Assembly: GCA_963674965.2 (NCBI GenBank)
Contig: CAXXFL010000001.1
Span: 1,248,001 to 1,312,000 of the forward strand
From: a bacterium
GTDB lineage: Bacteria; RBG-13-61-14; DATKZS01
Length of the DNA: 64,000 nucleotides
Direction: 5' to 3'
Made by a program: the position numbers and the translations under genes. Of this stretch, positions 23,802 through 64,000 are shown piece after piece. Under the pieces are notes generated by a model. The model saw only the letters and a list, made by a program, of their open reading frames with translations, did not search any database and was not told where the DNA came from. The first letter of the stretch is position 1; the number at the start of each line of letters is the position of its first letter.

Positions 23802-23871
23802 CTTTCTTTTGCTCAAAACGGGAGAATGGTCTTTTACTTTTTTTTATCTGAAGGATTGAAACGGAAAAACC

Positions 23872-25251
23872 ATGCATAAAGAAAAAGTCTGGAACAAGAT
23901 TCTAAGCGAGCTATCGCTCGAAATCGACCAAAACAACTTGACCAAGTTCCGTTCACTGCTTACCCTTGGCGACGTAAACCAGGAAAAGCTCATTATCCGA
24001 GCTTCCAACCGGTTCGTTTACGACTGGGTAAGAAAAAACTATCACAGCCAGATCGAGAACGCCGCTGGAGCGGCCCTTGGCAACAACGTTAAACTCCTTC
24101 TGGAGATCGACCGAAGCCCTGAGAAGATTGATAACGCCGCTCCTCTTTCGTCCGACTCCATTGCTTCCTCTTTCCCGGTCAAATCACCCGATTCTTCCTC
24201 GCGCTTGCCCCTTCCCAAGCATCCCATGCTTGTTCCCGAGATGACCTTCGAAAATTTCATCGTCGGTCCTTCCAACCAGTTCGCTCACGCCGCCTGCAAG
24301 GCCTTCTCCGAAAAGAACGCCAGAAACTACAACCCCATGTTCATCTATGGAGGAGTGGGCCTGGGCAAGACCCATCTTCTCAACGCGGTGGGCAACCGTA
24401 TGCATGATATTAACCCCTCCCTCAAGATCATTTCCATTCAGGCCGAGAGCTTTATCCGTGACATGATCGAGGCCATCCGCAAGGAAAAGATGGAGGAGTT
24501 CAGGAGCAAATACCGAAACCAGTGCGACGTTCTTTTAATGGACGACGTTTACATCCTGGCCGGCAAGGAGAGGACCCAGGAGGAGTTTTTTTATACCTTT
24601 AACGAACTGATCAAAAACGGCAAGAAGATTATCTTTACTTCCGACAAGATGCCTCGGGAGATGACTACACTGGAGGAAAGGCTGAAAAGCCGTTTCGAGA
24701 GCGGCATGATGGTGGATATCCAGCCTCCCGAGTTCGAGACCAGGCTGGCCATCATGAAGTACTTCGCCGAGGTCGAAAGGATGATACTTCCCGACGACGT
24801 TGCTTTCTTTATGGCCGACAAAATCCGCTCCAACATCAGAAAACTCAAAGGCTGCATGATAAGGCTCGCGGCCCTCAGTTCTCTTTCCGGTACTCCTATA
24901 ACTTTGGACTTGGCCAACGACATCATGATGGCCATCATCGAGGACGAGGATTCAAAGCTCACTTCAGAACTCATTATGAAAATCGTGGCCGATTACTTCA
25001 AGATCAAGGTATCCGATCTTAAATCTCCCAAGCGAAACAGAAAGTACACCGTGCCCAGGCAGATAGCCATGTATCTTTGCCGGCAGCTCTGCGATATGTC
25101 TTTTCCCGAGATCGGCCAGGCCTTCGGGGGAAGGGACCACTCGACCGTTATCCATTCCTGTAAGAAGATAGGCGTCGAGAAGAATACCGATCGCGAACTC
25201 GAAAGACATATCGATTGCCTTAAAAAGCAGCTTAAAATAAACCACTCGTAA
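23872..25251 (+). CDS. dnaA: Chromosomal replication initiator DnaA
   Basis: All four domains; YNPMFIYGGVGLGKTHLL, MDD, RLKSRF, PRQIAMYL, GGRDHSTVIH. Confidence 0.98.
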   Translation: MHKEKVWNKILSELSLEIDQNNLTKFRSLLTLGDVNQEKLIIRASNRFVYDWVRKNYHSQIENAAGAALGNNVKLLLEIDRSPEKIDNAAPLSSDSIASSFPVKSPDSSSRLPLPKHPMLVPEMTFENFIVGPSNQFAHAACKAFSEKNARNYNPMFIYGGVGLGKTHLLNAVGNRMHDINPSLKIISIQAESFIRDMIEAIRKEKMEEFRSKYRNQCDVLLMDDVYILAGKERTQEEFFYTFNELIKNGKKIIFTSDKMPREMTTLEERLKSRFESGMMVDIQPPEFETRLAIMKYFAEVERMILPDDVAFFMADKIRSNIRKLKGCMIRLAALSSLSGTPITLDLANDIMMAIIEDEDSKLTSELIMKIVADYFKIKVSDLKSPKRNRKYTVPRQIAMYLCRQLCDMSFPEIGQAFGGRDHSTVIHSCKKIGVEKNTDRELERHIDCLKKQLKINHS

Positions 25252-49691: not shown

Positions 49692-51380
49692 TCAGTTGCC
49701 TTTGTTTTTTATTTTCGCCCAGGCGTCGCGCAGAGTGACCGAGCGGTTGAAGACCAGCCTTTCCCCCGTCGAGTCCGGGTCCACGCTGAAATATCCCTTT
49801 CTCTCGAACTGGTAAAAGTCCTCGGGTTTGGCCCCCTTCAGGCTGGGCTCGACGAAGCACTCGGGCAGGACCTCGAGGGAATCGGGATTAAGGCCGTCCA
49901 GCCAGTCCCCGCCTTCCTCCACGTCGCCGGGATACTCGTTGGTAAACAGGCGGTCGTAGAGCCTGACCTCGGCCCGCAGGGCGCGCCGGGCCGACACCCA
50001 GTGGAGGGTCGCCTTGACCTTGCGTCCATCCTGGGCGTCGCCTCCCCTGGTGGCCGGATCGTAAGAGCATTTAAGCAACGTCACCTCGCCGTCCGCGTTC
50101 TTGACAACTTCATCGCACTTGATGAAGTAGGCGTAACGGAGGCGGACCTCTTTTCCCGGGGCCAGGCGGTAAAACTTCTTGGGAGGGTCCTCCATGAAGT
50201 CCTCCCTCTCGATGTACAGCTCCCGAGAGAAGGGGACCTTGCGCGTGCCCATGGACTCGTCCTCGGGGTTGTTGACCGCCTCGAACTCCTCCTCCATATC
50301 CGCGGGATAATTGGTTATCTCGATCTTGAGAGGATCGAGAACGCCCATTACCCGAGGGGCCCGTTTATTCAGGTCCTCCCTCAGGCAGTGCTCGAGAAGG
50401 GCAACGTCAACCGTGCTGTCGGCCTTGGCCACGCCGATCCGGCGGCAAAAAGCCTTGATAGACTCGGCCGTGTAGCCCCGCCTGCGAAGGCCGGAGATGG
50501 TGGGCATGCGCGGATCGCTCCAGCCCTTGACGTGCCCCTCCTTGACCAGGGTGATGAGCTTGCGCTTGCTCAGGACCGTGTAGGTCAGGTTGAGCCGGGC
50601 GAACTCGATCTGCTGGGGATGGTGGATGCCCAGTTGATTTATATACCAGTCGTAAAGGGGCCTGTGGTCCTCGAACTCGAGAGTGCATATCGAGTGGGTG
50701 ATGCCCTCGGTCGAGTCCGACTGGCCGTGGGCCCAGTCGTACATGGGATAGATGACCCACTTGCTTTTAGTCCTCGGGTGGGGCGCCTTGAGTATCCTGT
50801 ACATGACCGGGTCCCTCAGGTTGAGGTTGGGAGAGGCCATGTCTATCTTGGCCCGGAGCACCCTGGTCCCCTCCGCGAACTCACCCGCCTTCATGCGAGC
50901 GAAAAGATCGAGGTTCTCCGCGACCGGCCGTTCGCGAAAAGGACTGTCCTTGCCCGGGCGAGTCAGGGTCCCCCGGTACTCCCGAATCTCGTCGCCCGTA
51001 AGATCGCAAACAAAGGCCTTGCCCGCCTTGATCAACTCGACCGCCCAGTCGTGCAGCCGGTCGAAATAGTCCGAGGCGTAGTAAAGGTGCTCGCCCCAGT
51101 CGAAACCGAGCCACCTTACGTCCTCCTTGATCGACTCGATGTACTCCTCTTCCTCCTTGGTGGGATTGGTGTCGTCAAAGCGGAGGTGACAACGGCCGCC
51201 GTTCTCGGCCGCGATGCTGAAGTTCAGGTTGATGCTTTTGGCGTGCCCGATGTGAAGATAGCCGTTGGGCTCGGGCGGGAACCTGGTGACTACTTTGCCA
51301 TTCCATTTATTCGTCCGTTTGTCCTCGGCGACTACCTGCCGGATGAAGTCCAAAGACGCCGCGCCTGATTCTTCGGCCAT
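49692..51380 (-). CDS. glnS: Glutamine-tRNA ligase
   Basis: [39 protein letters not shown]. Confidence 0.97.
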
Positions 51381-51663: not shown

Positions 51664-54600
51664 ATGTCGAAAAAGGACATGAGAAAAACCAAGGCCGAAC
51701 TGGTAAAGGAGTTGGAGGAACTCCGGGGGAAAGCCTCGCTTTCTTCGCCCCGTGATTTGGAAGATATCAAGTCGGACCGCAACGAGTTCCATCTAATGGC
51801 CAGGAAAATATTCGACAAATGCCGCGATCTTACGGGCGCCCGGTCCGGTTACGTGGCCTTGCTCAACGAGAGGGGAGACGAGAACGAGGTCATTTTCCTC
51901 GAGGCTGGCGGACTGCCGTGCAGCGTCTCGCCCGACCTGCCCATGCCTATCAGGGGCCTCAGGGCCCAAGCCTACGATCAAGGAAAGGTCGCCCTCGATA
52001 ACGACTTCATGAACGGCGAATGGGCCAAGCTCATGCCCGAGGGTCACGTTGACCTGGACAACGTTCTTTTCGCTCCCCTTAACGTACGCGGCCAAACCAG
52101 GGGCCTTATTGGCCTGGCCAACAAACCGGGCGGGTTCTCCGAACTTGACGCCAGGATTGCCGCCGCCATGGGCGATATTTGCGCCTCCGAGCTGGAAAAG
52201 CACGTCATTCGGGACGAGCTGGCCAGGAGCGAGGCGCTGTTCCGAGAAATGTTCCACGGCCACAGTTCGGTGAAACTGCTCATCGATCCGGAAACGGGCG
52301 AGTTAGTGGCGGCCAATGAGGCCGCCTGCAAATTCTACGGGTACGATGAGGACGTCTTCAAGTCCATGAATATTACACAGATCAACGTCCTACCCGCCCG
52401 GGAAGTATTCGAGAGGATGTCCGCCGCCATCAGCGGGGACGAGTCGAGGTTTTTCTTCCAGCATCGGCTGGCCTCGGGAGAGGTTCGCCACGTTGACGTC
52501 CATTCCTCACCCGTCAAGGCGCTGGGCAAAAAGCTTCTTTACTCGGTAGTTCACGACGTTACCGAAAAGAAGGAGGCGGAACGGGGAATTCGGGACCGCG
52601 AGGAAACTCTTCGCGCTCTGGTTGACGCCTCCCTCGATAAAATAATGCTCATGGACCTGGATGGAACGGCGCTGGCGGTTAACGACGCCTTTGCCAAAGG
52701 TTTCGGACTGGCCGTCAAGGACGTCCTCGGACGAAACGCCTTTGAACTTCTTCCGCCCGAGAACAGAGCGGGGCGAGAGGAAAAAGTCGCGGAGGTTATC
52801 AGGTCGGGCCGGCCGGTTCGTTTCGTGGATAAAAGAGGGGCCGCGGTCCTGGAAAATCACATTAACCCCGTGTTCGACGGGGAAGGCAACGTCGCTCGGC
52901 TGGCCGTTTACGGCCGGGATATTACCGAGCGGCTGGAGGCCGAACAGAAGCTGCGGGAAAGCGAGGCCAAATACCGGCTCATGGCCGATAACGTTTCCGA
53001 CCTGATCTGGGCCATGGACCTCGAGTTGAACCATACTTATATCAGTCCCTCCATCGAGAAGATGTCTGGCTTCACCGCCGAGGAAATCCTGCAAATGAAG
53101 CCCGCGGACTTTATGACCCCCGAGTCTCTGGAGAAGGTCGGTCATCTTTTCCTCCGGGAATTCGCCAAAGTCAAGGAGGACCCCGAGTCGGCCTCCGAGC
53201 CCACGACTTTCGAGCTTGTATATTATAAAAAGGACGGAAATCTTCTTCCCGTCGAGGTAAGCGCGCGTTTCCTGGTTGACGAAAAAGGGAATCCCACCGG
53301 GATTTTGGGGATCACGCGAGACATTTCCGAAAGGAAAAGGGCGGAGGAAAAAGTCCTCGAGAGCGAAAGAGAGCTTCAACTGACCCTCGACGCCACCACC
53401 GACGGCATATGGAAATGGAACTTTTTAACCCACGAGATGTTCTTCAGCAACAAGTACTATGCCATGCTCGGTTACGAGCCGGGAGAGTTCGAGCCCTCCT
53501 ACGAGAACTGGGCCGACCTGATACATCCCGACGACCTCGAGACGACCCTGGCCGTGGCCCGGGAATACCTCGAGACCAAGCCCGACTTTTACCGGAACGA
53601 GTTCAGGCTGAGGACCAAAAGCGGCGATTACCGATGGATCAGCGCCGAGGCCCGGGTGGTGGAAAGGGATGAGTCCGGAGGGGCCGTGAGGATGATCGGC
53701 CATCACCGGGACGTGACCGAGAGAAAACAAAATGAGCGGGCCCTCGAGTTGGCGGCCCGGGAATGGAGCCGGACCTTCGACGCCATTCCCGACTCGGTCA
53801 TGATCATCGACAACTCGTTCAATATTATCCGGGCCAACCGGGCGGCGGTAAGGCTGGCGGGTAACTCGCCGGACGACGTTTTGGGGAGGAAATGTTTCGC
53901 GGTCCTTCACGGAAGCGACGCTCCCCCATCCTTTTGTCCCCACGTCCGGGCGATCAAGGACGGCAAGTCCCACAGCGAGGAAGTATACGAGCCCAAGCTG
54001 GAAGGGCACTTTATCGTCAGCGCTTCCCCCATATTCGACGCCTCGGGCAAGCTGGACCGCGTGGTCCACGTCATGAGGGACGTCACCGAAAGGAAAAACC
54101 AGGAAAACAGGATCAGAGATCAGCACCAGTTCATGGAAAAAGTCTTCGACGCGGCCTCGGAGGGTATCTTCGTTCTCGATCAGGACGCCAGGTACGCGCT
54201 TATAAATCGGTCGTGGGAACAAATTTTCGGGTTCGCGAGAGGGGAATATATCGGGAAAAAAGCGGGAACAACCATTGGCGAGGAATACCGGGACGTGGTG
54301 GCCGAGGCCTTCGATAAAGCCTATAAGGGACAAAGAGAACGCTGCGAGTTCGTATTCAAGGGGAAAGGGGGTAAGGAAAAGATAATCGACCTTGGCCTGA
54401 GCCCGCTTATTTGGCATGAAGAGATGCACGTACTGGGCATGGCCCAGGATATAACCCAGAAGAAAAAAGCGGAACGGGAGCTGAAAAGAAGCCAGGCCGA
54501 GCTGTCCGCCATTCTTCATAACGCGCCGGTCCTGGTAATGCTCGTGGACCGGGAGCGGCGAGTGCTGAAAATCAACGGATACGCGAGCGACCAATCCGGA

Positions 54601-56703
54601 AATCCGCCGGAGAAGCTTATCGGCCTGCGGGGAGGCGAGGCCCTGAGATGCGTCCACCATCTTGACGACCCCGGGGGATGCGGCTATGGGGAGGCCTGTC
54701 GGGAATGCCGCGTAAGACGAGCGGTCATGGATACCTTCGAGACCGGCGAGGGCCGGGAGCGTATCGAGTGCAATTTTTCCTTTATCAAGGAGGGGGACCG
54801 CGAGTCCAGCGAGAAAACTCTCCTGGTTTCGACCGCCCTTCTCGAGGTGGGCGAGACGGAGGCCGCGCTGGTCTGTATCGAGGACGTGACCGATTTGAAG
54901 GAGGTGGAAAAAGCCCTCAGGACCCGGCTCGAGTACGAGCAGGCCCTGGGCGAATGCTCGAAGCTCCTTCTTTCCGAGACGGCGGATGAGGACCCCATCG
55001 AGGACGTCCTTTCAAATCTTCTTCAGACCACCGAGGTCGACCGCGTCTACCGCTTCGAAAACTTCGAGGACCCGGAAAAGGGAACTTGCATGAGGCAGAC
55101 CATCGAGGTCCTCGCGCCCGGCGTCGAGCCGGCCATGGGCCGAGCGCCCATGGAGGGGCTTCCCTATAAAGAAGGCTTCTCGCTATGGCGAAGAGAGCTC
55201 TCCCAGGGCATGCCCATCATGGGCCCGGTTTCCTCCTTCCCTCTCGAGGAAAGGCGAGCGCTCGAGCCAAGGGGAATACTTTCCATCCTCGTTCTGCCCA
55301 TCCAGATAAACGGGGAATGGGAAGGTTTTGTGGGCTTCGACGACGTCACCCGCGGGCGCGGCTGGAGCGAGGAGGACGTGAGATTGATGGAGACGGCCGT
55401 CGAGATGATCCAGTCCCATGAGGAAAGAAAGCGGGCGCGCCTGGGCCTTATCGAGTCCGAAAACCTGTTCCGGCGCCTTTTCGATAACGTGACGAGCGGA
55501 ATAATCATGACGGGCCCGGACGGTAAAATCCTGATGATAAATTCCCACGCCCTCTCCCTTTTGGGCCTCGATGAAGGCATAATCGGCAAGGACCCCGCCG
55601 AGACGGTCCCCGCCGCCGCGCCGCTTTTTTCGCGCCTCCACCTTGGACACCAGAACCGGGCGGAGGTGACCCTGGCCTCGGGCGACGAGCTTCTCCTGGG
55701 CTACACCAGCGTCGAGGTGGACCTGCCGGAGGGAAAGGGACTGATCACCCTCTTCAGGGACATCGGCCGTCTCATGCAGGCCGAGGACAGAAGAAGGCGC
55801 GCCGAGCAGCTCGCCCAGGTGGGAGAGCTGGCCGCCAGGCTGAGCCACGAGATCAAGAACCCCCTGGCCTCGATCATGGCGGGCCTGCAGCTTCTTGACG
55901 GCAACCTGTACCTCCGGTCGGATGACAACCTCGTGCTTCAGACCATTATCGAGGAGGTAAAAAACGTCAGCCACCTGGTGAGCGGCATCCTGGACGCGGC
56001 CCGCTTCGAGGTGGTAAATCCCGAGACGGTGGACCTCGCCACGCTGCTTAGAGACGCGGGGGATTTGTTCTTCAGCCTTTCCAGGAAAAAGGGCATAGAC
56101 GTCCGGGTCGAGGCCGAGACCTCGGGCTTGTCCGTTTTTCTTGACAGGAGGTCCTTTGGCAGGGCCATCGCAAACCTTGTCAACAACTCGATCGAGGCCA
56201 TTTTCACAAATGGAAGAATCGACGTCGTTTCCCGGCTCCTGAGTCCGGCTGAGAAGGGTCTCCTTTTTCCAGGCTTCCAGGGGGAAGTGGCCGAGATACG
56301 GGTGGCGGACGACGGGCCGGGCATTCCGGAGCATGAGTTGGAGAAGGTGTTCAGCCCCTTTTACACGACCAAGGAATCGGGCACGGGCCTGGGCCTGGCC
56401 GTGGCCCGCGACGTGGTCGAGTTCCACGGCGGGGTCATGCGAGCGGGCAACGCCGAGGGCGGAGGCGCCGTTTTCCAGATATATCTGCCGGCCGGCGAGC
56501 GCGCCGTATGCAGCGATATGGGAATATGCTCGGCCGAGGATTGCGACGCCTGTCCGACCAAAAAGTGCGGCATGACCCTGCTTTGCTGGTCCAATAAGGT
56601 CGAGGAGGCAAGGCTCGAGGGGTTCCGCTACCCGGAAAAATGTCCGGACTGCGCGGTGTTCAGGCAGGGAAACCTGTCGCATTTCTATAAACCGAGGGAC
56701 TGA
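51664..56703 (+). CDS. Cytoplasmic multi-sensor histidine kinase (GAF, many PAS, GAF, PAS, HisKA, HATPase, Cys-rich tail)
   Basis: Many (R)D(I/V)TERK PAS ends; H-box LSHEIKNPL; N-box, DDGPGI, FSPFYTTK, GTGLGL; no TM seen; ATG 51679 may be the true start. Confidence 0.92.
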   Translation: MSKKDMRKTKAELVKELEELRGKASLSSPRDLEDIKSDRNEFHLMARKIFDKCRDLTGARSGYVALLNERGDENEVIFLEAGGLPCSVSPDLPMPIRGLRAQAYDQGKVALDNDFMNGEWAKLMPEGHVDLDNVLFAPLNVRGQTRGLIGLANKPGGFSELDARIAAAMGDICASELEKHVIRDELARSEALFREMFHGHSSVKLLIDPETGELVAANEAACKFYGYDEDVFKSMNITQINVLPAREVFERMSAAISGDESRFFFQHRLASGEVRHVDVHSSPVKALGKKLLYSVVHDVTEKKEAERGIRDREETLRALVDASLDKIMLMDLDGTALAVNDAFAKGFGLAVKDVLGRNAFELLPPENRAGREEKVAEVIRSGRPVRFVDKRGAAVLENHINPVFDGEGNVARLAVYGRDITERLEAEQKLRESEAKYRLMADNVSDLIWAMDLELNHTYISPSIEKMSGFTAEEILQMKPADFMTPESLEKVGHLFLREFAKVKEDPESASEPTTFELVYYKKDGNLLPVEVSARFLVDEKGNPTGILGITRDISERKRAEEKVLESERELQLTLDATTDGIWKWNFLTHEMFFSNKYYAMLGYEPGEFEPSYENWADLIHPDDLETTLAVAREYLETKPDFYRNEFRLRTKSGDYRWISAEARVVERDESGGAVRMIGHHRDVTERKQNERALELAAREWSRTFDAIPDSVMIIDNSFNIIRANRAAVRLAGNSPDDVLGRKCFAVLHGSDAPPSFCPHVRAIKDGKSHSEEVYEPKLEGHFIVSASPIFDASGKLDRVVHVMRDVTERKNQENRIRDQHQFMEKVFDAASEGIFVLDQDARYALINRSWEQIFGFARGEYIGKKAGTTIGEEYRDVVAEAFDKAYKGQRERCEFVFKGKGGKEKIIDLGLSPLIWHEEMHVLGMAQDITQKKKAERELKRSQAELSAILHNAPVLVMLVDRERRVLKINGYASDQSGNPPEKLIGLRGGEALRCVHHLDDPGGCGYGEACRECRVRRAVMDTFETGEGRERIECNFSFIKEGDRESSEKTLLVSTALLEVGETEAALVCIEDVTDLKEVEKALRTRLEYEQALGECSKLLLSETADEDPIEDVLSNLLQTTEVDRVYRFENFEDPEKGTCMRQTIEVLAPGVEPAMGRAPMEGLPYKEGFSLWRRELSQGMPIMGPVSSFPLEERRALEPRGILSILVLPIQINGEWEGFVGFDDVTRGRGWSEEDVRLMETAVEMIQSHEERKRARLGLIESENLFRRLFDNVTSGIIMTGPDGKILMINSHALSLLGLDEGIIGKDPAETVPAAAPLFSRLHLGHQNRAEVTLASGDELLLGYTSVEVDLPEGKGLITLFRDIGRLMQAEDRRRRAEQLAQVGELAARLSHEIKNPLASIMAGLQLLDGNLYLRSDDNLVLQTIIEEVKNVSHLVSGILDAARFEVVNPETVDLATLLRDAGDLFFSLSRKKGIDVRVEAETSGLSVFLDRRSFGRAIANLVNNSIEAIFTNGRIDVVSRLLSPAEKGLLFPGFQGEVAEIRVADDGPGIPEHELEKVFSPFYTTKESGTGLGLAVARDVVEFHGGVMRAGNAEGGGAVFQIYLPAGERAVCSDMGICSAEDCDACPTKKCGMTLLCWSNKVEEARLEGFRYPEKCPDCAVFRQGNLSHFYKPRD

Positions 56704-58095
56704 ATGCAGGCAACCGTTTTAATCGTGGACGACAACGCCGAACTGGCGGGCTTTCTCGAAAGACTGCTCGCCGCCGAGGGCTTCGACGCGTCCTCCTCCA
56801 ACGACGCGGCGCAGGCCAGGAAAGACATGGCCCGCCTGTACCCCGACGCCGTCCTAATGGACATCAAGCTTCCCGACGCCAATGGCGTAGAACTTTTAAG
56901 CGAGATGAAAAAACTCTACCCCGAGACCCAGTTCATCATGATGACCGCCTTCGCCAGCGTGAAGACGGCCATTAAAAGCATCAAAATCGGGGCCTACGAT
57001 TACCTCTCCAAGCCGTTCGACTCGGGCGAAATGATATACCTTCTAAACAACGCGCTCCAGGAAAAGGCCATGAGGGAAGAGCTGGCCCTGCTTCGTTCCG
57101 AGCGCGCGGCGCCCTCATCCAAGTCCGGCGTCCTCGAGTATCCGAGCTCGGTCATGAAAACCACCATGGCCATGTGCGAAAAAATCGCGCCCGGCAAGGG
57201 CAACGTGCTGCTTACGGGCGAGAGCGGGGTGGGCAAAAATTACCTGGCGGGCGTCATCCATACCCTCTCGAGCCGGGTGAAAGGGCCCTTCTTCGATATT
57301 AACTGCGCATCTCTCGCGCCCTCCCTCATCGAGTCGGAGCTCTTCGGCCACGAGCCCGGGGCCTTTACCGGCGCCAGGGGAAGGAGAAGGGGACTGATCG
57401 AGCTGGCCCATAACGGGACCCTTTTTCTCGACGAGATTGGCGACATGCCAGTCGAGCTGCAGGCCAAGCTGCTTTCCTTCCTTGACACGCACAAGCTTCG
57501 AAGGCTGGGAGGCGAGAAAGTCGTCGAGGTCGACGTAAGGATTATCGCCGCCACCAACCGGGACCTTAAAAAACTCATCGGCGAGGGACGCTTCCGGGAG
57601 GACCTTTTTTATCGTCTGAACGTCGTGTCCATTGAAATCCCGCCGCTGCGCGCCCGCAAGGAGGACATACCCCTTCTCGTGGAGGAGATATGCCGGAGGA
57701 TCGCCTATGACATGGGACTTTCCCGGACCCCCCGGCCTTCACGCTCGGTCCTTAATAAACTGAAAGCCCACTCCTGGCCGGGAAACGTAAGGGAACTGAG
57801 AAACGCCCTGGAGCGGGCCATCATGCTCGCTCCCGACAAGACCGAGATTGCCGACCTCAGGCTGGAAGAAGGTCCCGGCGGCCACGCGACCGGCCCGGCC
57901 GGGGGCGACGCGATCTACGAGGTACGCCTTCCTCCAGAGGGAGTGGACCTCAAAGCCGTTAACAGGGACGTGTCACGGGCCCTGATCGAGGAAGCCCTGC
58001 GCCGCGCCGAGACCAAAAAGGAAGCGGCCGACCTGTTGGGCGTGACCAAGGACTCCCTGGCCCATTCGATCAAGACGCTGAAGATCAAGGCGTGA
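56704..58095 (+). CDS. Sigma-54-dependent NtrC-family response regulator (REC-AAA+-HTH)
   Basis: VDD, MDIKLPD, KP; GESGVGK, ESELFGHEPGAFTGA, LFLDEIG, WPGNVREL, AADLLG. Confidence 0.95.
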   Translation: MQATVLIVDDNAELAGFLERLLAAEGFDASSSNDAAQARKDMARLYPDAVLMDIKLPDANGVELLSEMKKLYPETQFIMMTAFASVKTAIKSIKIGAYDYLSKPFDSGEMIYLLNNALQEKAMREELALLRSERAAPSSKSGVLEYPSSVMKTTMAMCEKIAPGKGNVLLTGESGVGKNYLAGVIHTLSSRVKGPFFDINCASLAPSLIESELFGHEPGAFTGARGRRRGLIELAHNGTLFLDEIGDMPVELQAKLLSFLDTHKLRRLGGEKVVEVDVRIIAATNRDLKKLIGEGRFREDLFYRLNVVSIEIPPLRARKEDIPLLVEEICRRIAYDMGLSRTPRPSRSVLNKLKAHSWPGNVRELRNALERAIMLAPDKTEIADLRLEEGPGGHATGPAGGDAIYEVRLPPEGVDLKAVNRDVSRALIEEALRRAETKKEAADLLGVTKDSLAHSIKTLKIKA

Positions 58096-58217
58096 TTCTT
58101 ACCGCAAAGCGTGATTTTCACGCGCCGCCATTTTCTCTTTGCATAACCTTCAAATCCCCAATGATATTTGGAATTATCCTCGGGTCTGGATAGGCCGAGC
58201 GCGTGAAAAGCACGCGC
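58090..58217. promoter_or_regulatory. Candidate enhancer (UAS) palindromes GCGTG-N5-CACGC
   Basis: GCGTGATTTTCACGC 58109-23, GCGTGAAAAGCACGC 58201-15, degenerate copy 58090-105. Confidence 0.6.
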
Positions 58218-58314
58218 CGGCGAACCCTTGCCTCCATGGCCGGCGATTAAACGATTACCAATTTTTCCTTTATATTGCGGCGGTTATAAAAAGCTCGATG
58301 GTCCTTGCCCTTTA

Positions 58315-58330
58315 TGGCACGCCGCGTGCT
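58315..58330 (+). promoter_or_regulatory. Sigma-54 (-24/-12) promoter
   Basis: TGGCACGCCGCGTGCT has exact GG-N10-GC spacing and a TGGCACG -24 box; ends 37 bp before ATG 58368. Confidence 0.75.
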
Positions 58331-58367
58331 TATTAGGTGAATAATCGCTTCCGGCAAAGGCAAGGAC

Positions 58368-59048
58368 ATGATTATTCTAATCGTTGAAGACAATTTAAAC
58401 CTGGCGACGTTTACCTCGCGCAACATCATGAAGGAGAAGCCTTCATGGAAGGTCCTGGTCACGGGCTCGTGCTTCGAGGCCCGGAACGTCACGGACCATA
58501 TCACGCCGGATATAGCCCTGATAGACCTTAGCCTGCCGGACGGAAACGGTCTCGATCTTTTGTTCGAGCTTAGGATCAAGTGCCAGAACATGCCCGCCAT
58601 ACTTACCAGCGCCTCGGTCTCGAAGAAATTAACCGACGAGGTAAACAGCCTGGGCGGATACATGGTGTTGGAAAAGCCCTTCGACTTCCGGGACCTGGTG
58701 GCCGTGCTCGAGGACGCCGGAGGGAGGACCGGCCAAAGGAGCGTGGACGCGGAGGACCTGGAATCGCGGCGGCGGGAGGAAAAAGCCGACGGGGACTTGA
58801 GCCCGTATTCGCCCTGGACCTATTCCCCCAAAAGCGGGCTTAACTATCACCAGATGCTGAACCGCCTTTCGGGCCTGCTCGCCGGTATCCGGGCCTTCGA
58901 GGCCGAAGTCTGCGCCGCGGCGGGAGACGAGCGGGCCGTCCGCGAGGCGGCGGGCGAATACGTGGACAGGCTCTGCCGGATCGTCGGCGACATGACCCGG
59001 ATGGTCAATAGCGCCCGGGCGGCCGAGCCGGGAAAGGGCCGGCAATGA
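58368..59048 (+). CDS. Receiver-domain protein with C-terminal HisKA/DHp-like helices
   Basis: LIVED, LIDLSLPDGNG, TS, EKPF; tail YHQMLNRLSGLLAG...VDRLCRIV. Confidence 0.8.
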   Translation: MIILIVEDNLNLATFTSRNIMKEKPSWKVLVTGSCFEARNVTDHITPDIALIDLSLPDGNGLDLLFELRIKCQNMPAILTSASVSKKLTDEVNSLGGYMVLEKPFDFRDLVAVLEDAGGRTGQRSVDAEDLESRRREEKADGDLSPYSPWTYSPKSGLNYHQMLNRLSGLLAGIRAFEAEVCAAAGDERAVREAAGEYVDRLCRIVGDMTRMVNSARAAEPGKGRQ

Positions 59049-59791
59049 GCAAGGAGCTGGAAATACTGTTCGTTGACGACGACCCCGACGTGAGCTGGTC
59101 CTTGTGCCGGCTGCTCACGCGCTCCGGCTTCTCGGTCATAACCTGCGGGGACGGGGCCGAGGCCATACCCATCCTGGAGGAAAAAAACTTCGACGTGCTT
59201 ATTACCGACGTCCAGATGCCCCAGGTAAACGGGCTGGCCCTCCTCGAGTGGGTCAGGCAAAATCGGCCCGCCACCAAGGTAGTGGTGATCACGGCCTATG
59301 GCTCGCCCACGGTGAAGCACCTGAGCATGCGGAAGGGGGCCCTTCTTTACCTCGAGAAGCCTCTCGATCCCGATCTTTTGATCGAGGTCCTTCGCGAGTC
59401 GGAGAAGGAGGAGACCTTTTACGGGAACGTGCATCGGATCGATCTTTTCGATTACGTTCAGCTTTTAATCCTTACCCGCAGCAAGGCGGTTCTGGAAATC
59501 CATTCCCGAAACGGGAGGATGGGATTGCTTTTTTTTCATGGAGGCGAGGCCGTGCACGCCGAAACGGAGGCCCTGCGGGGCGAAGAGGCCTTCAACAAGC
59601 TCCTGGCCCTCGAGGGAGGAAGCTTTAACACGCTGCCCTGGCGCGAGCCCCTGGAGCGGACCATCCAGCGTGGAGGCGAGTCCCTTCTCATGGAGGCGGC
59701 CAGGATCAAGGACGAGTCCTCCCAGGAGGAGGCGCGGGGCGAGGAAAACGCGTGGGCGGAAGCGGGACTGGAGGAATGGGGAGAGGAATAA
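59045..59791 (+). CDS. Response regulator, REC plus DUF4388-like domain
   Basis: FVDDD, ITDVQMP, TAYG, EKP; then G....IDLFDYVQL...G.LFF.GG..VHA...GEEAF...SLLMEAAR..DE. Confidence 0.85.
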   Translation: MSKELEILFVDDDPDVSWSLCRLLTRSGFSVITCGDGAEAIPILEEKNFDVLITDVQMPQVNGLALLEWVRQNRPATKVVVITAYGSPTVKHLSMRKGALLYLEKPLDPDLLIEVLRESEKEETFYGNVHRIDLFDYVQLLILTRSKAVLEIHSRNGRMGLLFFHGGEAVHAETEALRGEEAFNKLLALEGGSFNTLPWREPLERTIQRGGESLLMEAARIKDESSQEEARGEENAWAEAGLEEWGEE

Positions 59792-59809
59792 ATCCCCCGG
59801 GGAGGAAAG

Positions 59810-60289
59810 GTGAAAGGAATGGAAATAAACAAGGGCAAAGACGACGTGAAACAAATACTGGCTTCGCTTATCGATGCGTCCGGCGCCATGACCGCCCTTC
59901 TGGTGACCAAGCAGGGAAGCATCGTCTCGGACGCGGGCGATAAAAGCTACCTTAACATCACGGCCATGGCCGCCTTAATCGCGGGAATGTTCTCCGCCAC
60001 CAGGGAGGTGGCCAGGCTGGTGGGCGAAACCGAGTTTTCCATCCTTCTTCAGCAGGGCAAGAAAAGACATATACATATCTCGCTGATCACCGACGAGATC
60101 ATGATGGTGATAGTTTTCGAGGACTACAACCGAATCGGCCAGGTCAGGCACGAGGCCAGGAAAGCGAGCGAGCGCCTTGGCGCCTCGCTCGCTCCTGGCC
60201 GGGCCGAGCTCATGTCGGCCAAGGACATTTCCATGCCCGAGTTCAAGGAGTACGCCCTTAACCTGATCGACCGCATTTTTCAGGGGTAA
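59810..60289 (+). CDS. mglB: MglB-type roadblock/LC7 protein (MglA GAP homologue)
   Basis: ALLV..G, AALIAG.FSAT...ARLVGE.EFS.L.QG, G.VR, C-terminal ..IDRIF helix; directly before mglA. Confidence 0.85.
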   Translation: MKGMEINKGKDDVKQILASLIDASGAMTALLVTKQGSIVSDAGDKSYLNITAMAALIAGMFSATREVARLVGETEFSILLQQGKKRHIHISLITDEIMMVIVFEDYNRIGQVRHEARKASERLGASLAPGRAELMSAKDISMPEFKEYALNLIDRIFQG

Positions 60290-60300
60290 AGGCCGGCAAG

Positions 60301-60882
60301 ATGCCATATATCAACTACCAGGAAAAAGAGTTCAACTTCAAGATCGTGTATTACGGTCCCGGCATGAGCGGCAAGACGACGAACCTGGTTTACATACACA
60401 GGTCGCTCGACCCGGACCGCAAGGGCGAGCTGGTGATCCTGGACACGGAGGAGGAAAGGACCCTGTTCTTCGATTTCTTTCCCCTCGACCTGGGCGAGAT
60501 AGAGGGCTTCAACGTCAGGTTCAACATGTACACGGTCCCCGGCCAGGTCATGTACGAGGCCAGCAGGAAGCTCATCCTGGAAGGATCGGACGGCGTCATC
60601 TTCGTGGCCGACTCCCGCCCCGAGCGTTATGAGGCCAACATCGAGCTGTATCGGATGATGATCGCCAACCTCGAGTCCTACGGGCACGACCCCAAGACTT
60701 TTCCCACCGTGCTCCAGTACAACAAAAGGGACATGCCCGATCCCATTCCCGTCGGGTCCATCGAGAGGGACCTGGGACTTAACGGCATACCGGTTTTCGA
60801 GTCCGTCGCCACCAAGGGCGTCGGCGTAATGGACACCATCCGGAGAACGAGCCAGATGGTGATCGAGAAATTCCACCTATAA
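60301..60882 (+). CDS. mglA: MglA-type small Ras-like GTPase
   Basis: KIVYYGPGMSGKTTNL, ERTLFFDF, YTVPGQ, DGVIFVADS, QYNKRD, VAT.G.GV. Confidence 0.93.
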   Translation: MPYINYQEKEFNFKIVYYGPGMSGKTTNLVYIHRSLDPDRKGELVILDTEEERTLFFDFFPLDLGEIEGFNVRFNMYTVPGQVMYEASRKLILEGSDGVIFVADSRPERYEANIELYRMMIANLESYGHDPKTFPTVLQYNKRDMPDPIPVGSIERDLGLNGIPVFESVATKGVGVMDTIRRTSQMVIEKFHL

Positions 60883-60898
60883 GGACGCGGGACCCAAA

Positions 60899-61651
60899 AT
60901 GGCGCTAAGAGGAAGCCTGGAAGACATGGACGTGTTCGAGCTTGTCCAGTTTCCCCATCAGGGAAGAAAAAGCGGCGAGTTGATACTCGTGGGCTCCGAG
61001 CACGAGGCGAGACTCTATTACCAAAAAGGAAAGCTCGTTCACGCCAGATACCTCGAGACAAAGGGACTCGATGTCCTGGTCGAGGTCCTGGGATGGTCGG
61101 AGGGAGTGTTCGAGTTCAGGCCCAACGAGGACTCGCCCGAAACCTCCATTGAGATGGACCTTCACCGGGCCGTTATGCAGGCGTTGAAAATCAAAGACGA
61201 GAAAACCATGACCAATGAGGCCGGGGAAAACGATAGCGAAAATTTGGTCCCTGAAAAACCCGATACCGAGACGGGCATGGATATCGCGGCGGACGATACG
61301 GCTAAATGGGCCAATTTCAAAGAGGCGGCGCAAAAAGAGAAGCCCATCCTCAGCGCGGTCCTGGTAAACGAGTCGGGACAATGCCTGGCCAGGGCGGGTA
61401 GAAATAAATCCGACAACGGCCTGGAAACGGAGAAGGTCAAGGATTTTCTTTTGCAATACGCGCTCGATCATCCCCGGCCGGGAATGAAGCGGATCATCAC
61501 CGAGGACGCGGGAGGAACGGTGGTCATGATCCCCATTTCACGCGGGATGTTTCTCGTGGCCCTGGCGGGCAAGGACGCTTCCCTTGGGGCGGCGTCGCTA
61601 AGCGCCAACCGGTTGGCCGAGTTCGCGGAGCGAAAAGGGGAGCCAAGATGA
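60899..61651 (+). CDS. DUF4388 domain plus divergent roadblock-like C-terminal domain
   Basis: LRGSLEDM...ELVQ...KSG.L...G.LVHA...W.EG.FEF; C-terminal AVLVNESG..LA.AG...A.K.ASLG. Confidence 0.75.
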   Translation: MALRGSLEDMDVFELVQFPHQGRKSGELILVGSEHEARLYYQKGKLVHARYLETKGLDVLVEVLGWSEGVFEFRPNEDSPETSIEMDLHRAVMQALKIKDEKTMTNEAGENDSENLVPEKPDTETGMDIAADDTAKWANFKEAAQKEKPILSAVLVNESGQCLARAGRNKSDNGLETEKVKDFLLQYALDHPRPGMKRIITEDAGGTVVMIPISRGMFLVALAGKDASLGAASLSANRLAEFAERKGEPR

Positions 61652-62025
61652 CGCAACCGGCCGAGAAAATTGCCGCCGCGGCCCGGATTCTTGAGAGTTC
61701 CATCGAGGAGGAAGACCACGTCATGTACGCCTGCCTGATGGACGAGACGGGCAAGAGGGTGGCGGAAAAAGAAGGGGCGAAAACCGTCGAGGAGGCCCGA
61801 TCGATCAGGTCCAGCCTGCACGGTCTGGCCCAAGGCTATCCTCGCGGGGGCCTGGCCAGGGCCTTCATCGAGGACGAGATGGGCACGATCGCCCTGTATT
61901 GCGTCGCCGGCGATCTGTATCTGGCGGTCGCGGCCGAGCCCGGATCGCCTCTCGGAGCCGTCTCGATGACGGCCGGCCGCGTCGCGGAGCGGATAAAAAG
62001 CTCCCTCCAAACGGGACTCGAGTGA
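61648..62025 (+). CDS. Divergent roadblock/LC7-like protein
   Basis: ACLMDETG, FIEDEMG.IAL, LAVAAE..SPLG; resembles the C-terminal domain of the preceding gene; ATGA overlap. Confidence 0.65.
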   Translation: MTQPAEKIAAAARILESSIEEEDHVMYACLMDETGKRVAEKEGAKTVEEARSIRSSLHGLAQGYPRGGLARAFIEDEMGTIALYCVAGDLYLAVAAEPGSPLGAVSMTAGRVAERIKSSLQTGLE

Positions 62026-62029
62026 AGCT

Positions 62030-63082
62030 ATGAACACGGAACTGGAAAATAGTTACAAGCCCTTGTTGATTAAAACGGAGCCTCGCCCGGAAATGACCTT
62101 CGAGAGTTTCGTCACCTGCCGGGCCAACGAGTTTCCGGCCGAGGTGGCCAAGACCCTGGCCGAGGGACACACCCCCGCCTACAACCCGCTTTTTATTTAC
62201 AGCGACGTTGGACTGGGCAAGACCCACCTCCTTTACTCGATCGTCAATGAGGTCAACCGGATAGGCGAGGCTTCCATCGCCATATTCAACGCCGTCGACC
62301 TCGAGGCCGAGTTGGAGAGGGCGGACCGAATAGGCCGGCGGGCGGAGCTTCGGGATTGGCTCATTAAAAAGGACGTCCTTCTTATAGACGACGTCCAGTT
62401 CTGCGAGTCCAGCGAGTCCTTCCAAAAGGAGTTGTTCGCCATAATCAGCGGCATGACCTCGCTGAACAAGAGGGTGGCCATAACCTGCGACGTTCCTCCC
62501 ACCCGGCTCAGGGGCATCGAGAAACGGCTCATCTCCAGGCTGGGGGGAGGAGTTATCGTGAGCTTGCAAATGGCGGACCTGAACGCTCGGATCGAGATTC
62601 TGAGAAGGACCGCCGCCGAGGCCCCCATCGACGAGGACGTTTACAAATACCTGGCCGAGCGCATCGACGACAACGTGCGAAGGCTAAAGGCCGCCGTTTA
62701 CCAGCTTCTGGTCCATCACCGGGAGACGGGAGTGGAGATAAACATCGAGCTGACTCGGGCCATAATACCCATGCCCGAGGACCTGGCTCATGGACCCGCT
62801 CGGGAGGACGAGGCCCGAGGAGCGTCGGGAAAGCGGTCCGGCTCGGAACGGGAAACCTCGGCCTCGGGGATCGACCGGTTCAAGAAAATGCTCCAGAGCG
62901 CTGAAAACGAAAGGGAGCAGGCCCTGGCCCTGCAGATAGCCATAGGCGAACGCATAAGGCAGCTTCGAGGCAAGGAAGAAAACCGGCAGACCCTGGAAAA
63001 ATTAAATAACGCCCTCAGCCTTCTTCGGGCGGGAGAGCTTAAGGCGGCCGTCGAGTTTATGGCCGAGATAGGCGGGGATTGA
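62030..63082 (+). CDS. DnaA-like AAA+ ATPase (domain III only) with unrecognised C-terminal helical region
   Basis: PEMTFESF, YNPLFIYSDVGLGKTHLL, LLIDDVQF, TCD, RLISRL, NVRRL; no domain I and no domain IV signature. Confidence 0.88.
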   Translation: MNTELENSYKPLLIKTEPRPEMTFESFVTCRANEFPAEVAKTLAEGHTPAYNPLFIYSDVGLGKTHLLYSIVNEVNRIGEASIAIFNAVDLEAELERADRIGRRAELRDWLIKKDVLLIDDVQFCESSESFQKELFAIISGMTSLNKRVAITCDVPPTRLRGIEKRLISRLGGGVIVSLQMADLNARIEILRRTAAEAPIDEDVYKYLAERIDDNVRRLKAAVYQLLVHHRETGVEINIELTRAIIPMPEDLAHGPAREDEARGASGKRSGSERETSASGIDRFKKMLQSAENEREQALALQIAIGERIRQLRGKEENRQTLEKLNNALSLLRAGELKAAVEFMAEIGGD

Positions 63083-63249
63083 GGCGTGGAAGAATGATTC
63101 CCACCATCGCGAACGAATTCCGCGGCCGGGTCGAGAGTCCTCCCCTGGACCCGGCGGCGATAACCCATAGAAAAAAGGACGCCCTGAATATAGGTAAGTC
63201 AAACGGATCAAACAACGCAATTAACGGCAATTAGAAAGGAGAAAGAAAA

Positions 63250-63600
63250 ATGGCAAGCAAAGCGAACGGAATCATCAAGGAATTGAGCGGCACGGACGGC
63301 GTTCATGAGGTCCTGGTCGTGGGACGCGACGGTTTCGTAATCGACCACGTGGGCGACATGGACGCGGACGGAGTTGGCGCGGTTGTGTCCACCGCCATCG
63401 GCGCCATCGAGGCCATGGGAAGGGACACGGAGCAGGGAAACCTGTTCGAGATCATGGCCGAGTACAACGAGGGGACCATAATAGCCGCGCCCGTGGGCAG
63501 GGACGCCGTGTTGGGCATGGTCGCCAGCTCGAGCGCCAATCTTGGCGGCATACGCCACGCGGCCAAAAAGGCCATACGTGACCTGGAAAGGGCCCTGTAG
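63250..63600 (+). CDS. Roadblock/LC7 protein
   Basis: GV..VLVVGRDGFVI, EY..G.II.A, ANLG.IR. Confidence 0.88.
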   Translation: MASKANGIIKELSGTDGVHEVLVVGRDGFVIDHVGDMDADGVGAVVSTAIGAIEAMGRDTEQGNLFEIMAEYNEGTIIAAPVGRDAVLGMVASSSANLGGIRHAAKKAIRDLERAL

Positions 63601-63627
63601 GGCGGGGCCGGGAAAAGGAGAGATGAA

Positions 63628-64000
63628 ATGGCGGAAAAAGTAGACGTTAAGGCGGTCGAGGCGATCCTTTACGGGCTCTACAAGGCCCTTCACAAACTGG
63701 CGGGGGCCAGCGCCCCGGCGGTAATGCGCCAGGCGGCGCCGGACATGCTCGAGGAACTGGGCAAGCTGGGGGTGGACTTCTCCTGCGTCGACGACATCGA
63801 CAAGCTTCAGAGCAAGCTGGGAGACACCGTGACCAACACCGGGCTGTGCGACAAGATCGAGTTCTCGAAGAACGGCGACGACCTGACGGCCAAGATACAC
63901 GGATGCTCATTTTACGGCCTGACCAGTCAGCTCAAGTCCGAGGGCATCGAGCCTTTTGGCTGCCCTTTCGCCGCTCTTACCGTGGCCCTGGCCGAGAAGA
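63628..64000 (+). CDS. V4R/MetOD1-like protein, truncated by the window edge (absent from the ORF track)
   Basis: AGGAG then ATG 63628; open to the end: MAEKVDVKAVEAILYGLYKAL...AKIHGCSF...FGCPFAALTVA. Confidence 0.65.
   Translation, partial: MAEKVDVKAVEAILYGLYKALHKLAGASAPAVMRQAAPDMLEELGKLGVDFSCVDDIDKLQSKLGDTVTNTGLCDKIEFSKNGDDLTAKIHGCSFYGLTSQLKSEGIEPFGCPFAALTVALAEK

Follow-up and report, generated by a model that had tools for sequence, protein, structure and literature searches.

An apparently undescribed signalling operon that combines an MglA/MglB/PATAN module with a DnaA-derived AAA+ ATPase

MglA and MglB form the best-studied small-GTPase polarity switch in bacteria. The polarity module of Myxococcus xanthus consists of MglA, MglB, MglC and RomR/RomX and is driven by the Frz chemosensory system, while the conservons of Streptomyces encode a kinase (CvnA), a roadblock protein (CvnB), a DUF742 protein (CvnC) and a GTPase (CvnD). 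To our knowledge, the known partners of MglA and MglB include no AAA+ ATPase. The PATAN domain (DUF4388) is an output domain and was shown experimentally to bind the PilB1 ATPase of Synechocystis (bioRxiv 10.1101/2021.06.11.447907). Here we analyse a gene cluster in a window of 64,000 nucleotides (the whole stretch of DNA studied, G000:C1:1248001-1312000, where G000 is the source genome) which joins an MglA/MglB pair and several PATAN and roadblock proteins to a DnaA-derived AAA+ ATPase, g07. The cluster is a widely conserved and apparently undescribed signalling operon in which the MglA/MglB/PATAN module is accompanied by an undescribed AAA+ component. Full-text literature searches, in which a DnaA-like ATPase was nowhere connected to MglA or PATAN, agree with the novelty suggested when the cluster was first predicted from its sequence. 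A survey of the MglA family (Wuichet and Sogaard-Andersen 2014, PMC4316618) reports MglA/MglB genes near PATAN genes; its main text gives PATAN neighbours only and 'DnaA' nowhere.

The eleven open reading frames (ORFs) of the cluster within the window are all on the + strand at the positions originally given, and ten of their eleven labels were borne out by Pfam, NCBIfam, solved-structure and profile matches, the exception being g09. The cluster had been expected to continue past the window edge, and the downstream DNA extends it to window-equivalent position 67214. Its genes are as follows (coordinates are those of the window, or of locus L003 where the gene lies beyond it).

51664-56703, + strand: sensor histidine kinase of 1679 amino acids (Pfam GAF, multiple PAS, GAF, PAS, HisKA and HATPase_c)
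56704-58095, + strand: NtrC-type sigma-54 activator (Pfam REC, Sigma54_activat with E 2e-65, HTH_8)
58368-59048, + strand: g01, REC and DHp-like helical domain (Response_reg E 8e-15)
59045-59791, + strand: g02, REC-PATAN (DUF4388) response regulator (Response_reg E 7.5e-26, DUF4388 E 5.6e-13)
59810-60289, + strand: g03, MglB (Robl_LC7; solved MglB matches)
60301-60882, + strand: g04, MglA small GTPase (solved MglA matches)
60899-61651, + strand: g05, PATAN (DUF4388) with a C-terminal roadblock (DUF4388 E 4.8e-19)
61648-62025, + strand: g06, stand-alone roadblock-like protein, a paralogue of the g05 C-terminus
62030-63082, + strand: g07, AAA+ ATPase with DnaA domain III only (Bac_DnaA E 1.2e-35)
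63250-63600, + strand: g08, roadblock/LC7 protein (Robl_LC7 E 1.1e-15)
63628-64000, + strand: g09, 155 amino acids, cut by the window edge, with its true end at window-equivalent 64095
L003 6164-7171, + strand, beyond the window: g10, PATAN-like/roadblock protein (weak PATAN; roadblock by hhalign)
L003 7173-7661, + strand, beyond the window: ankyrin protein
L003 7710-8831, + strand, beyond the window: leucine-rich repeat (LRR) protein
L003 8828-9214, + strand, beyond the window: small GNAT protein, the last gene of the operon

As in the M. xanthus module, the MglA of the cluster has the catalytic Arg/Thr/Gln positions and adjoins MglB, extra roadblock paralogues recall MglC, and response regulators provide input; a counterpart set in Gemmatimonadaceae is surrounded by a Che operon, which resembles the Frz-driven arrangement. 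In contrast to the M. xanthus module, the cluster contains a DnaA-derived AAA+ protein, PATAN-roadblock fusions and the small Cys-bearing g09, and it lies behind a sigma-54 promoter with its own kinase and activator. The cyanobacterial PatA-type regulators (PixG, PixE, PatA) likewise join PATAN to REC, but the order in g02 is REC-PATAN and not PATAN-REC, a second PATAN domain is fused to a roadblock, and the neighbouring ATPase is of the DnaA type rather than the PilB type.

A relative from another genus of the same family (G002) carries the whole cluster, from the kinase to the GNAT gene, in the same order, with identities ranging from 45% (kinase) to 86% (g08 and g09). A single-sequence locus search found one relative only, and a profile search of species-representative genomes was used instead. 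With the ATPase as query this yielded 50 loci, 43 of which have a full-length family member; 44 loci, in 37 assemblies, were assigned to the ATPase family. The assemblies are labelled mostly as Desulfomonilaceae, Syntrophales, Myxococcota, Polyangia, Bradymonadales, Chloroflexi/Dehalococcoidia and Fermentibacteria-type. Counted only at loci with enough flanking sequence, the components occur as follows.

PATAN-roadblock (g05): 39/39 loci
MglB (g03): 35/35 loci
MglA (g04): 34/36 loci
REC-PATAN (g02): 31/34 loci
Roadblock g08: 28/35 loci
REC-DHp (g01): 23/34 loci
g09: 18/35 loci
Activator: 15/32 loci
Ankyrin: 13/32 loci
g10: 4/33 loci

The order REC-PATAN, MglB, MglA, PATAN-roadblock, ATPase is nearly fixed, and an adjacent kinase or activator is missing from about half of the loci. 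All-against-all clustering of the ORFs from 48 loci gave no further widespread + strand family beyond those named here. When the search was reversed in the 122 genomes of one class, the ATPase family was present in 16 and a strong PATAN-roadblock match in 18, including all 16; the matches in the remaining two lie at or near contig ends. The original prediction was to stand or fall chiefly by whether the gene set is conserved together in other genomes; since it is, and in many of them, the main ground for rejecting the prediction falls away.

Distribution within lineages is patchy. The family is carried by 2 of the 13 genomes of the source genome's own phylum and by 4 of 301 sampled Myxococcota genomes at a strict threshold, which sets a floor; the carriers in the 122-genome class are mostly larger genomes, with up to three copies each. 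Such a distribution (2/13, 16/122 and at least 4/301), taken with the ankyrin and LRR genes downstream, would suit anti-phage defence or mobile-element cargo, made up of the ATPase with the ankyrin, LRR and GNAT genes. We consider this very improbable: PADLOC gives no match for 12 of 13 proteins and its sole matches are to generic ankyrin repeats, no integrase or transposase is found among the recurrent neighbours, the G+C content of the cluster is that of its surroundings, and all of the core parts are signalling proteins.

The ATPase g07 contains Bac_DnaA only, and neither DnaA_N nor DnaA_C (domains I and IV) was found in it by Pfam. TIGR00362 (DnaA) scores 196 bits against a cut-off of 343.9 bits and matches at model positions 101-335 only; by these measures g07 is not a replication initiator, whereas the true DnaA of the genome, to which g07 is 32% identical, has all three domains. 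Nor does it qualify as Hda, for which TIGR03420 gives 78.2 bits against a cut-off of 194.8 bits; its best solved matches are to DnaA (E 1e-35), with solved Hda at only 2.3e-6. Like DnaA and Hda, g07 keeps AAA+ domain III with Walker A/B, sensor I, the box VII arginines and sensor II; unlike them it lacks domains I and IV, has a C-terminal helical domain of its own, is acidic and falls in a separate clade.

A search of 5.8 billion proteins returned, after the query itself, 58 family proteins with E-values from 7.4e-129 to 9.8e-52, query coverage of 79-98%, lengths of 303-439 amino acids and Pfam domains of the Bac_DnaA or AAA type only. These are followed by two longer ATP-binding proteins of the Gemmatimonadetes type at about 1e-50, and then by a drop to true DnaA proteins, which carry DnaA_N and DnaA_C and match at E 1.7e-37 with coverage of about 64%. 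Alignment of 33 family sequences reveals an N-terminal helical extension that is not present in all members, the AAA+ core, a linker that varies and a conserved C-terminal helical domain of about 65 amino acids (g07 residues ~280-345), which matched no Pfam or solved family and only designed helical-repeat and TPR-like chains. In the phylogenetic tree 47 family members lie on one side of a branch with SH-aLRT support of 100, opposite 21 DnaA sequences; the C-terminal columns peculiar to the family were part of the alignment, and their inclusion favours a split between family and DnaA. On this sequence evidence the g07 family is a clade separate from DnaA. Most family members possess the N-terminal extension, which g07 lacks. 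It comprises about 40 amino acids (alignment columns 1-60) with the consensus LPDFLxxxVxKGIVDExTAxRIEL, and no model matched it at E 0.05. By eye, the extension recalls the helical 'clip' repeats of PilB-type ATPases and PATAN insertions.

Comparison of the family, column by column, with E. coli DnaA and 55 true DnaAs showed that 34 of the 78 AAA+ columns conserved at 90% or more in DnaA are retained. Those retained include K178/T179, D235/D236, D269, R281, R285 and R334. At E. coli position 204, which is Glu in DnaA, the family has mostly Ala; at position 211, 73% of its members have Glu, and at position 245, 42% have Asp. We take E204 to be needed for hydrolysis, and V211 and R245 to be contacts to single-stranded DNA. 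The median isoelectric point of the family is 5.4 (n=33) compared with 9.0 for DnaA (n=59). From these residues and charges and from the missing domains I and IV, the ATPase appears to have lost DNA-binding features.

The original prediction had proposed a possible effect on replication or the cell cycle through a DnaA-type oligomer. In one such scenario, the induced DnaA-like AAA+ protein would use its arginine finger to enter DnaA oligomers, in the manner of Hda, and block or trigger initiation, with MglA and the roadblock proteins gating the ATPase. Replication control retains some probability because the residues for oligomerisation are intact: the equivalents of R281, R285 and R334 are kept in g07 together with Walker A/B and sensor I. 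The closest solved structures are, as noted, DnaA and not Hda (2e-6), and the true dnaA gene (DnaA_N, Bac_DnaA, Bac_DnaA_C) lies at 23860-25251 on the + strand, about 37 kb upstream of g07, so that the window is probably near the replication origin. We nevertheless regard this explanation as quite unlikely, and the proposed replication link was not supported. The low identity to the genome's own DnaA, the missing domains I and IV, the acidic residues at 211 and 245 and the acidic character of the whole family (5.4 against 9.0) argue against it, as do the presence of up to three copies per genome and the Hda score (78 against 194.8 bits); an N-terminal clamp-binding motif was not seen in the family alignment, which was inspected by eye only. 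Proximity to dnaA is not conserved either, the related module in a complete Gemmatimonadaceae chromosome (G044) being about 1.9 Mb from dnaA.

The best solved match of g03 is M. xanthus MglB (E 1.6e-14), with T. thermophilus MglB also matched, while the NCBIfam MglB model gives 58.5 bits, below its cut-off of 200 bits. The protein has the roadblock fold, is closest to solved MglB and is encoded 11 bp upstream of mglA; it is predicted to act as a GTPase-activating protein. Solved MglA structures are matched by g04 at E 4e-65 (T. thermophilus) and 1.7e-64 (M. xanthus), and its P-loop, Arg53-Thr54, PGQ82 and NKxD show little or no variation among 33 cluster MglAs. It is a canonical MglA, with P-loop, switch-1 Arg-Thr, PGQ replacing DxxGQ, and NKxD. 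A separate adjacent mglB-mglA pair, for which the original prediction recommended a check, is present in the genome at G000:C5:829669-830730 (- strand), its MglA being 55% identical to that of the operon. There are two further MglA paralogues (C6:1248899 and C4:46801), beside which the query used found no MglB match.

The clustering of a kinase, roadblock proteins and an MglA-family GTPase is also reminiscent of a conservon, and it has been proposed for Streptomyces CvnA-D that the GTPase and roadblock proteins feed back on the kinase. By analogy, the GTPase and roadblock proteins of the cluster could mainly feed back on the adjacent kinase and activator, with the ATPase serving as an assembly factor only. 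The cluster shares an adjacent kinase with at least 11 of 31 loci, and g08 resembles CvnB5: its profile matches solved Robl at 1e-14, CvnB5 at 5e-13, MglB at 1e-9 and MglC at 3e-7. We judge such a device unlikely, because no DUF742 (CvnC-type) protein was detected among the 26 proteins scanned, roughly half of the loci lack an adjacent kinase or activator, and the Gemmatimonadaceae use Che proteins instead. The GTPase keeps NKxD, whereas the conservon GTPase group often lacks its lysine, according to the family survey (Wuichet and Sogaard-Andersen, PMC4316618). The cluster further differs from a conservon in its soluble PAS/GAF kinase and its PATAN, REC and AAA+ parts, and, given the missing DUF742 protein and the canonical GTPase, it does not qualify as one; the original prediction had likewise set the conservon apart.

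With g10 and its neighbours included, the cluster holds five roadblock domains (g03, the g05 C-terminus, g06, g08 and the g10 C-terminus) and two clear PATAN domains plus a weak one. The PATAN model PF14332 scores 49.4 bits on g02 and 69 bits on g05, above its 25-bit cut-off, and 21.5 bits on g10, below it. The C-terminus of g10 is a roadblock by hhalign (96.4% probability, E 1.1e-9); that of g05 matches a solved roadblock at E 5.7e-7 and the g08 family with 72% probability (hhalign, E 3.5e-5). Direct Pfam and NCBIfam searches gave no family for g06, which is 28% identical to g05 residues 127-241 (BLASTP, E 1e-11) and occurs as a separate gene only in G000 and G002. The MshEN motif scores 22 bits on g10 against a cut-off of 38 bits and is absent from the N-terminal extensions of nine ATPase-family members, and a link to cyclic di-GMP was therefore dropped. 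In g01, Asp8 of the REC acidic pocket, the acceptor Asp53 and, in the C-terminal helices, His161 and Asn165 are the same in all 21 homologues compared, and the motif H-x3-N-x-L-x2-L-x-A/G-G resembles the H-box of the adjacent kinase. As g01 has no catalytic ATPase domain, we read it as a candidate phosphotransfer protein of REC-DHp type that would feed the REC-PATAN protein g02.

The prediction of a tight, co-oriented cluster that has a kinase and an activator of its own and follows a sigma-54 promoter was supported. The kinase, which is 45% identical to its syntenic counterpart in G002, is predicted to be cytoplasmic, with no hydrophobic stretch typical of a membrane span, and no cluster protein contains such a stretch. 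At least 11 of 31 loci have a kinase core upstream on the same strand, and 15 of 31 have an upstream activator gene. The activator has GAFTGA at residue 219. The regulatory sites ahead of g01 are as follows.

58315-58330, + strand: sigma-54 -24/-12 promoter, TGGCAC-N5-GTGCT (TGGCACGCCGCGTGC at 58315-58329), a sequence motif
~58091-58104, 58109-58123 and 58199-58217: three GTGA-N4/5-(T)CAC palindromes, candidate activator sites read from the sequence

The promoter sequence TGGCACGCCGCGTGCT is 37 nt ahead of g01, and GGCAC-N6-TGCT stands at the aligned place in G002, the only close relative with the cluster. All three palindromes, at which the activator is expected to bind, are kept in the intergenic alignment of G000 and G002. 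Scanning up to 450 bp upstream of the first REC gene for TGGCAC-N5-TTGCW with at most one mismatch found a site in 13 of 32 loci, compared with 28 of 1795 background windows of 450 bp, and the loci with a site are mainly those with an upstream activator gene. The locus therefore has every part of a sigma-54-dependent operon: the -24 GG/-12 GC promoter, the GAFTGA activator and rpoN, which is encoded in the source genome. Control of the cluster by the activator is well supported in silico; sigma-54/activator control is not universal for the module.

The small protein g09 had been labelled V4R-like, and this label failed. No match was found for it in Pfam, NCBIfam or PDB sequences. The Pfam V4R model (PF02830) finds two other genes in the genome and not g09, V4R against g09 by hhalign gives E ~0.1, no better than unrelated controls, and V4R is absent from the Atlas structural neighbours of a g09 homologue; by eye the pattern Cys...P-x-C...helix...GK-x-x-V-x-E recalls V4R, a likeness that is not significant. 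Cys74, Cys93 and Cys112 are invariant in 21 sequences, mean column identity within the module is 81%, and the family has only 70 representatives (E <= 0.001) among 1.84 billion. Some relatives have sub-threshold matches to ATC_hydrolase/MetOD1 only, and one distant relative is fused to rubredoxin. In the ESM Atlas, two homologues are nearest to clusters with ATC_hydrolase and with RdxA_C, a domain that follows rubredoxin; the model of a 39%-identical homologue (P0126) has a TM of 0.83 to the RdxA_C and 0.63 to the ATC_hydrolase clusters. It is possible that g09 has a ligand- or redox-sensing role. The redox signal of the original prediction, which draws only on the PAS/GAF domains and on this small Cys-bearing protein, was not supported.

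Four loci in Gemmatimonadaceae (L074-L077) encode MglA followed directly by a protein of about 640 amino acids with two tandem Bac_DnaA domains. In one of them the gene lies inside a chemosensory operon.

L076 10001-11932: tandem Bac_DnaA protein

Its neighbours there are CheW, CheA, CheC, a 973-amino-acid PATAN protein, TPR, two roadblock proteins, MglA, the tandem ATPase, PATAN, TPR-CheR and CheB. The combination of MglA, roadblock, PATAN and DnaA-type ATPase is thus connected to different sensory inputs in different lineages, which fits an output module. An ORF at L074 9401-11719 that fuses MglA to the ATPase was not used as evidence; it is probably a frameshift in a long-read assembly, since its second domain is out of frame and the genes are separate in the three sister loci.

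A divergently transcribed tRNA synthetase gene lies upstream of the cluster.

49692-51380, - strand: Glu/Gln-tRNA synthetase gene

From this gene to the window end all long ORFs of interest are on the + strand. The activator gene starts directly after the kinase stop, and most gene junctions measure -4 to 27 bp, the exceptions being 272 bp at the promoter and 167 bp before g08; two wider gaps, of 68 and 48 bp, also occur in the part downstream of the window. No terminator-like site was found on the + strand between cluster genes, and the single weak one on that strand is within g10. After the GNAT gene there is a gap of 152 bp with a sigma-70-like site, the only one detected and ahead of the next transcription unit, which is an unrelated fusion gene. 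This gene (L003 9367-10872, window-equivalent 67367-68872) combines a metallo-beta-lactamase fold, a cNMP-binding domain and a Crp-type helix-turn-helix. Inside the 167-bp gap between the ATPase gene and g08, a G+C-rich inverted repeat (GCCGGGTC ... GACCCGGC) lies at 63120-63160 and has no T-run; nothing in this gap, the hairpin included, is conserved in G002. In a wastewater metatranscriptome run (X4), short contigs match 56347-56612, 63359-63621 and 63700-63875, on the kinase, g08 and g09, and as they differ at 0-4 positions a near-identical organism is present in that wastewater. These stretches of the kinase, g08 and g09 genes may be transcribed in it.

We propose that the operon encodes a GTPase switch driven by sensory input, the effector or scaffold of which is an ATP-dependent oligomer of the DnaA-derived protein, acting on polarity or on the placement of a machine. 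To this reading we give an even chance of being right; we favour it because of the analogy with Frz-MglA, the binding of PATAN to PilB1 in Synechocystis and the Che context in Gemmatimonadaceae. The PAS/GAF kinase would phosphorylate the NtrC-type activator, which would bind the three palindromes and fire the sigma-54 promoter, all of these parts being present at the locus. Phosphoryl groups may also pass through His161 of the REC-DHp protein g01 to the REC-PATAN protein g02. By homology, MglB would be the GTPase-activating protein for MglA, and the extra roadblock domains (of g05, g06, g08 and g10) would dimerise and tune or localise the switch, with the PATAN domains probably serving as adaptors. 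The DnaA-derived AAA+ protein, in which the ATP site and the arginine finger needed for head-to-tail oligomers are kept, would be the ATP-dependent effector or scaffold. The likeliest output would then be a spatial one, setting the polarity or position of a cellular machine such as type IV pili, by analogy with Frz-MglA and PATAN-PilB. The genome encodes seven PilT-family and two PilB proteins over cut-off, plus flagellins, which permits such a reading and does not prove it.

Several observations weigh against this proposal. No motility or pilus genes were found among the recurrent neighbours at 48 loci, so that the output is suggested by analogy only. With its Walker, sensor and arginine-finger residues intact, the ATPase could just as well make contact with DnaA itself, and in the DnaA set conservation reaches only 58% at position 211 and 65% at position 245. 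The halves of the tandem Gemmatimonadaceae ATPase fall outside the clade of the single-domain family, and the Che context may accordingly reflect parallel recruitment. The component counts are conditional on the ATPase, through which the loci were found, and related genomes are not independent. Evidence for expression is weak, coming from one metatranscriptome in which no contig bridges two genes by 31 bases. On balance, the analogies make spatial control the likeliest output, replication control being less likely. A more specific mechanism, in which the GTP cycle of MglA, tuned by roadblock dimers and PATAN adaptors, would gate an ATP-dependent, DNA-free filament or ring of the DnaA-derived AAA+ protein, is put forward tentatively, as less likely than not.

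If true, this mechanism would amount to a spatial switch that uses two nucleotides, GTP and ATP, with the initiator fold re-used as a cytoplasmic scaffold into which different sensory pathways plug, two-component and sigma-54 control here and chemosensory control elsewhere. Public records currently name the ATPase 'DnaA', 'DnaC', 'DnaA/Hda family' or 'ATP-binding protein', and g09 'hypothetical'; recognition of the ATPase family would correct these automatic annotations. The association of the family with MglA, MglB and PATAN-roadblock proteins in several phyla suggests that such switches have an effector layer not studied so far, and it would give the initiator fold a second role beyond DNA replication.

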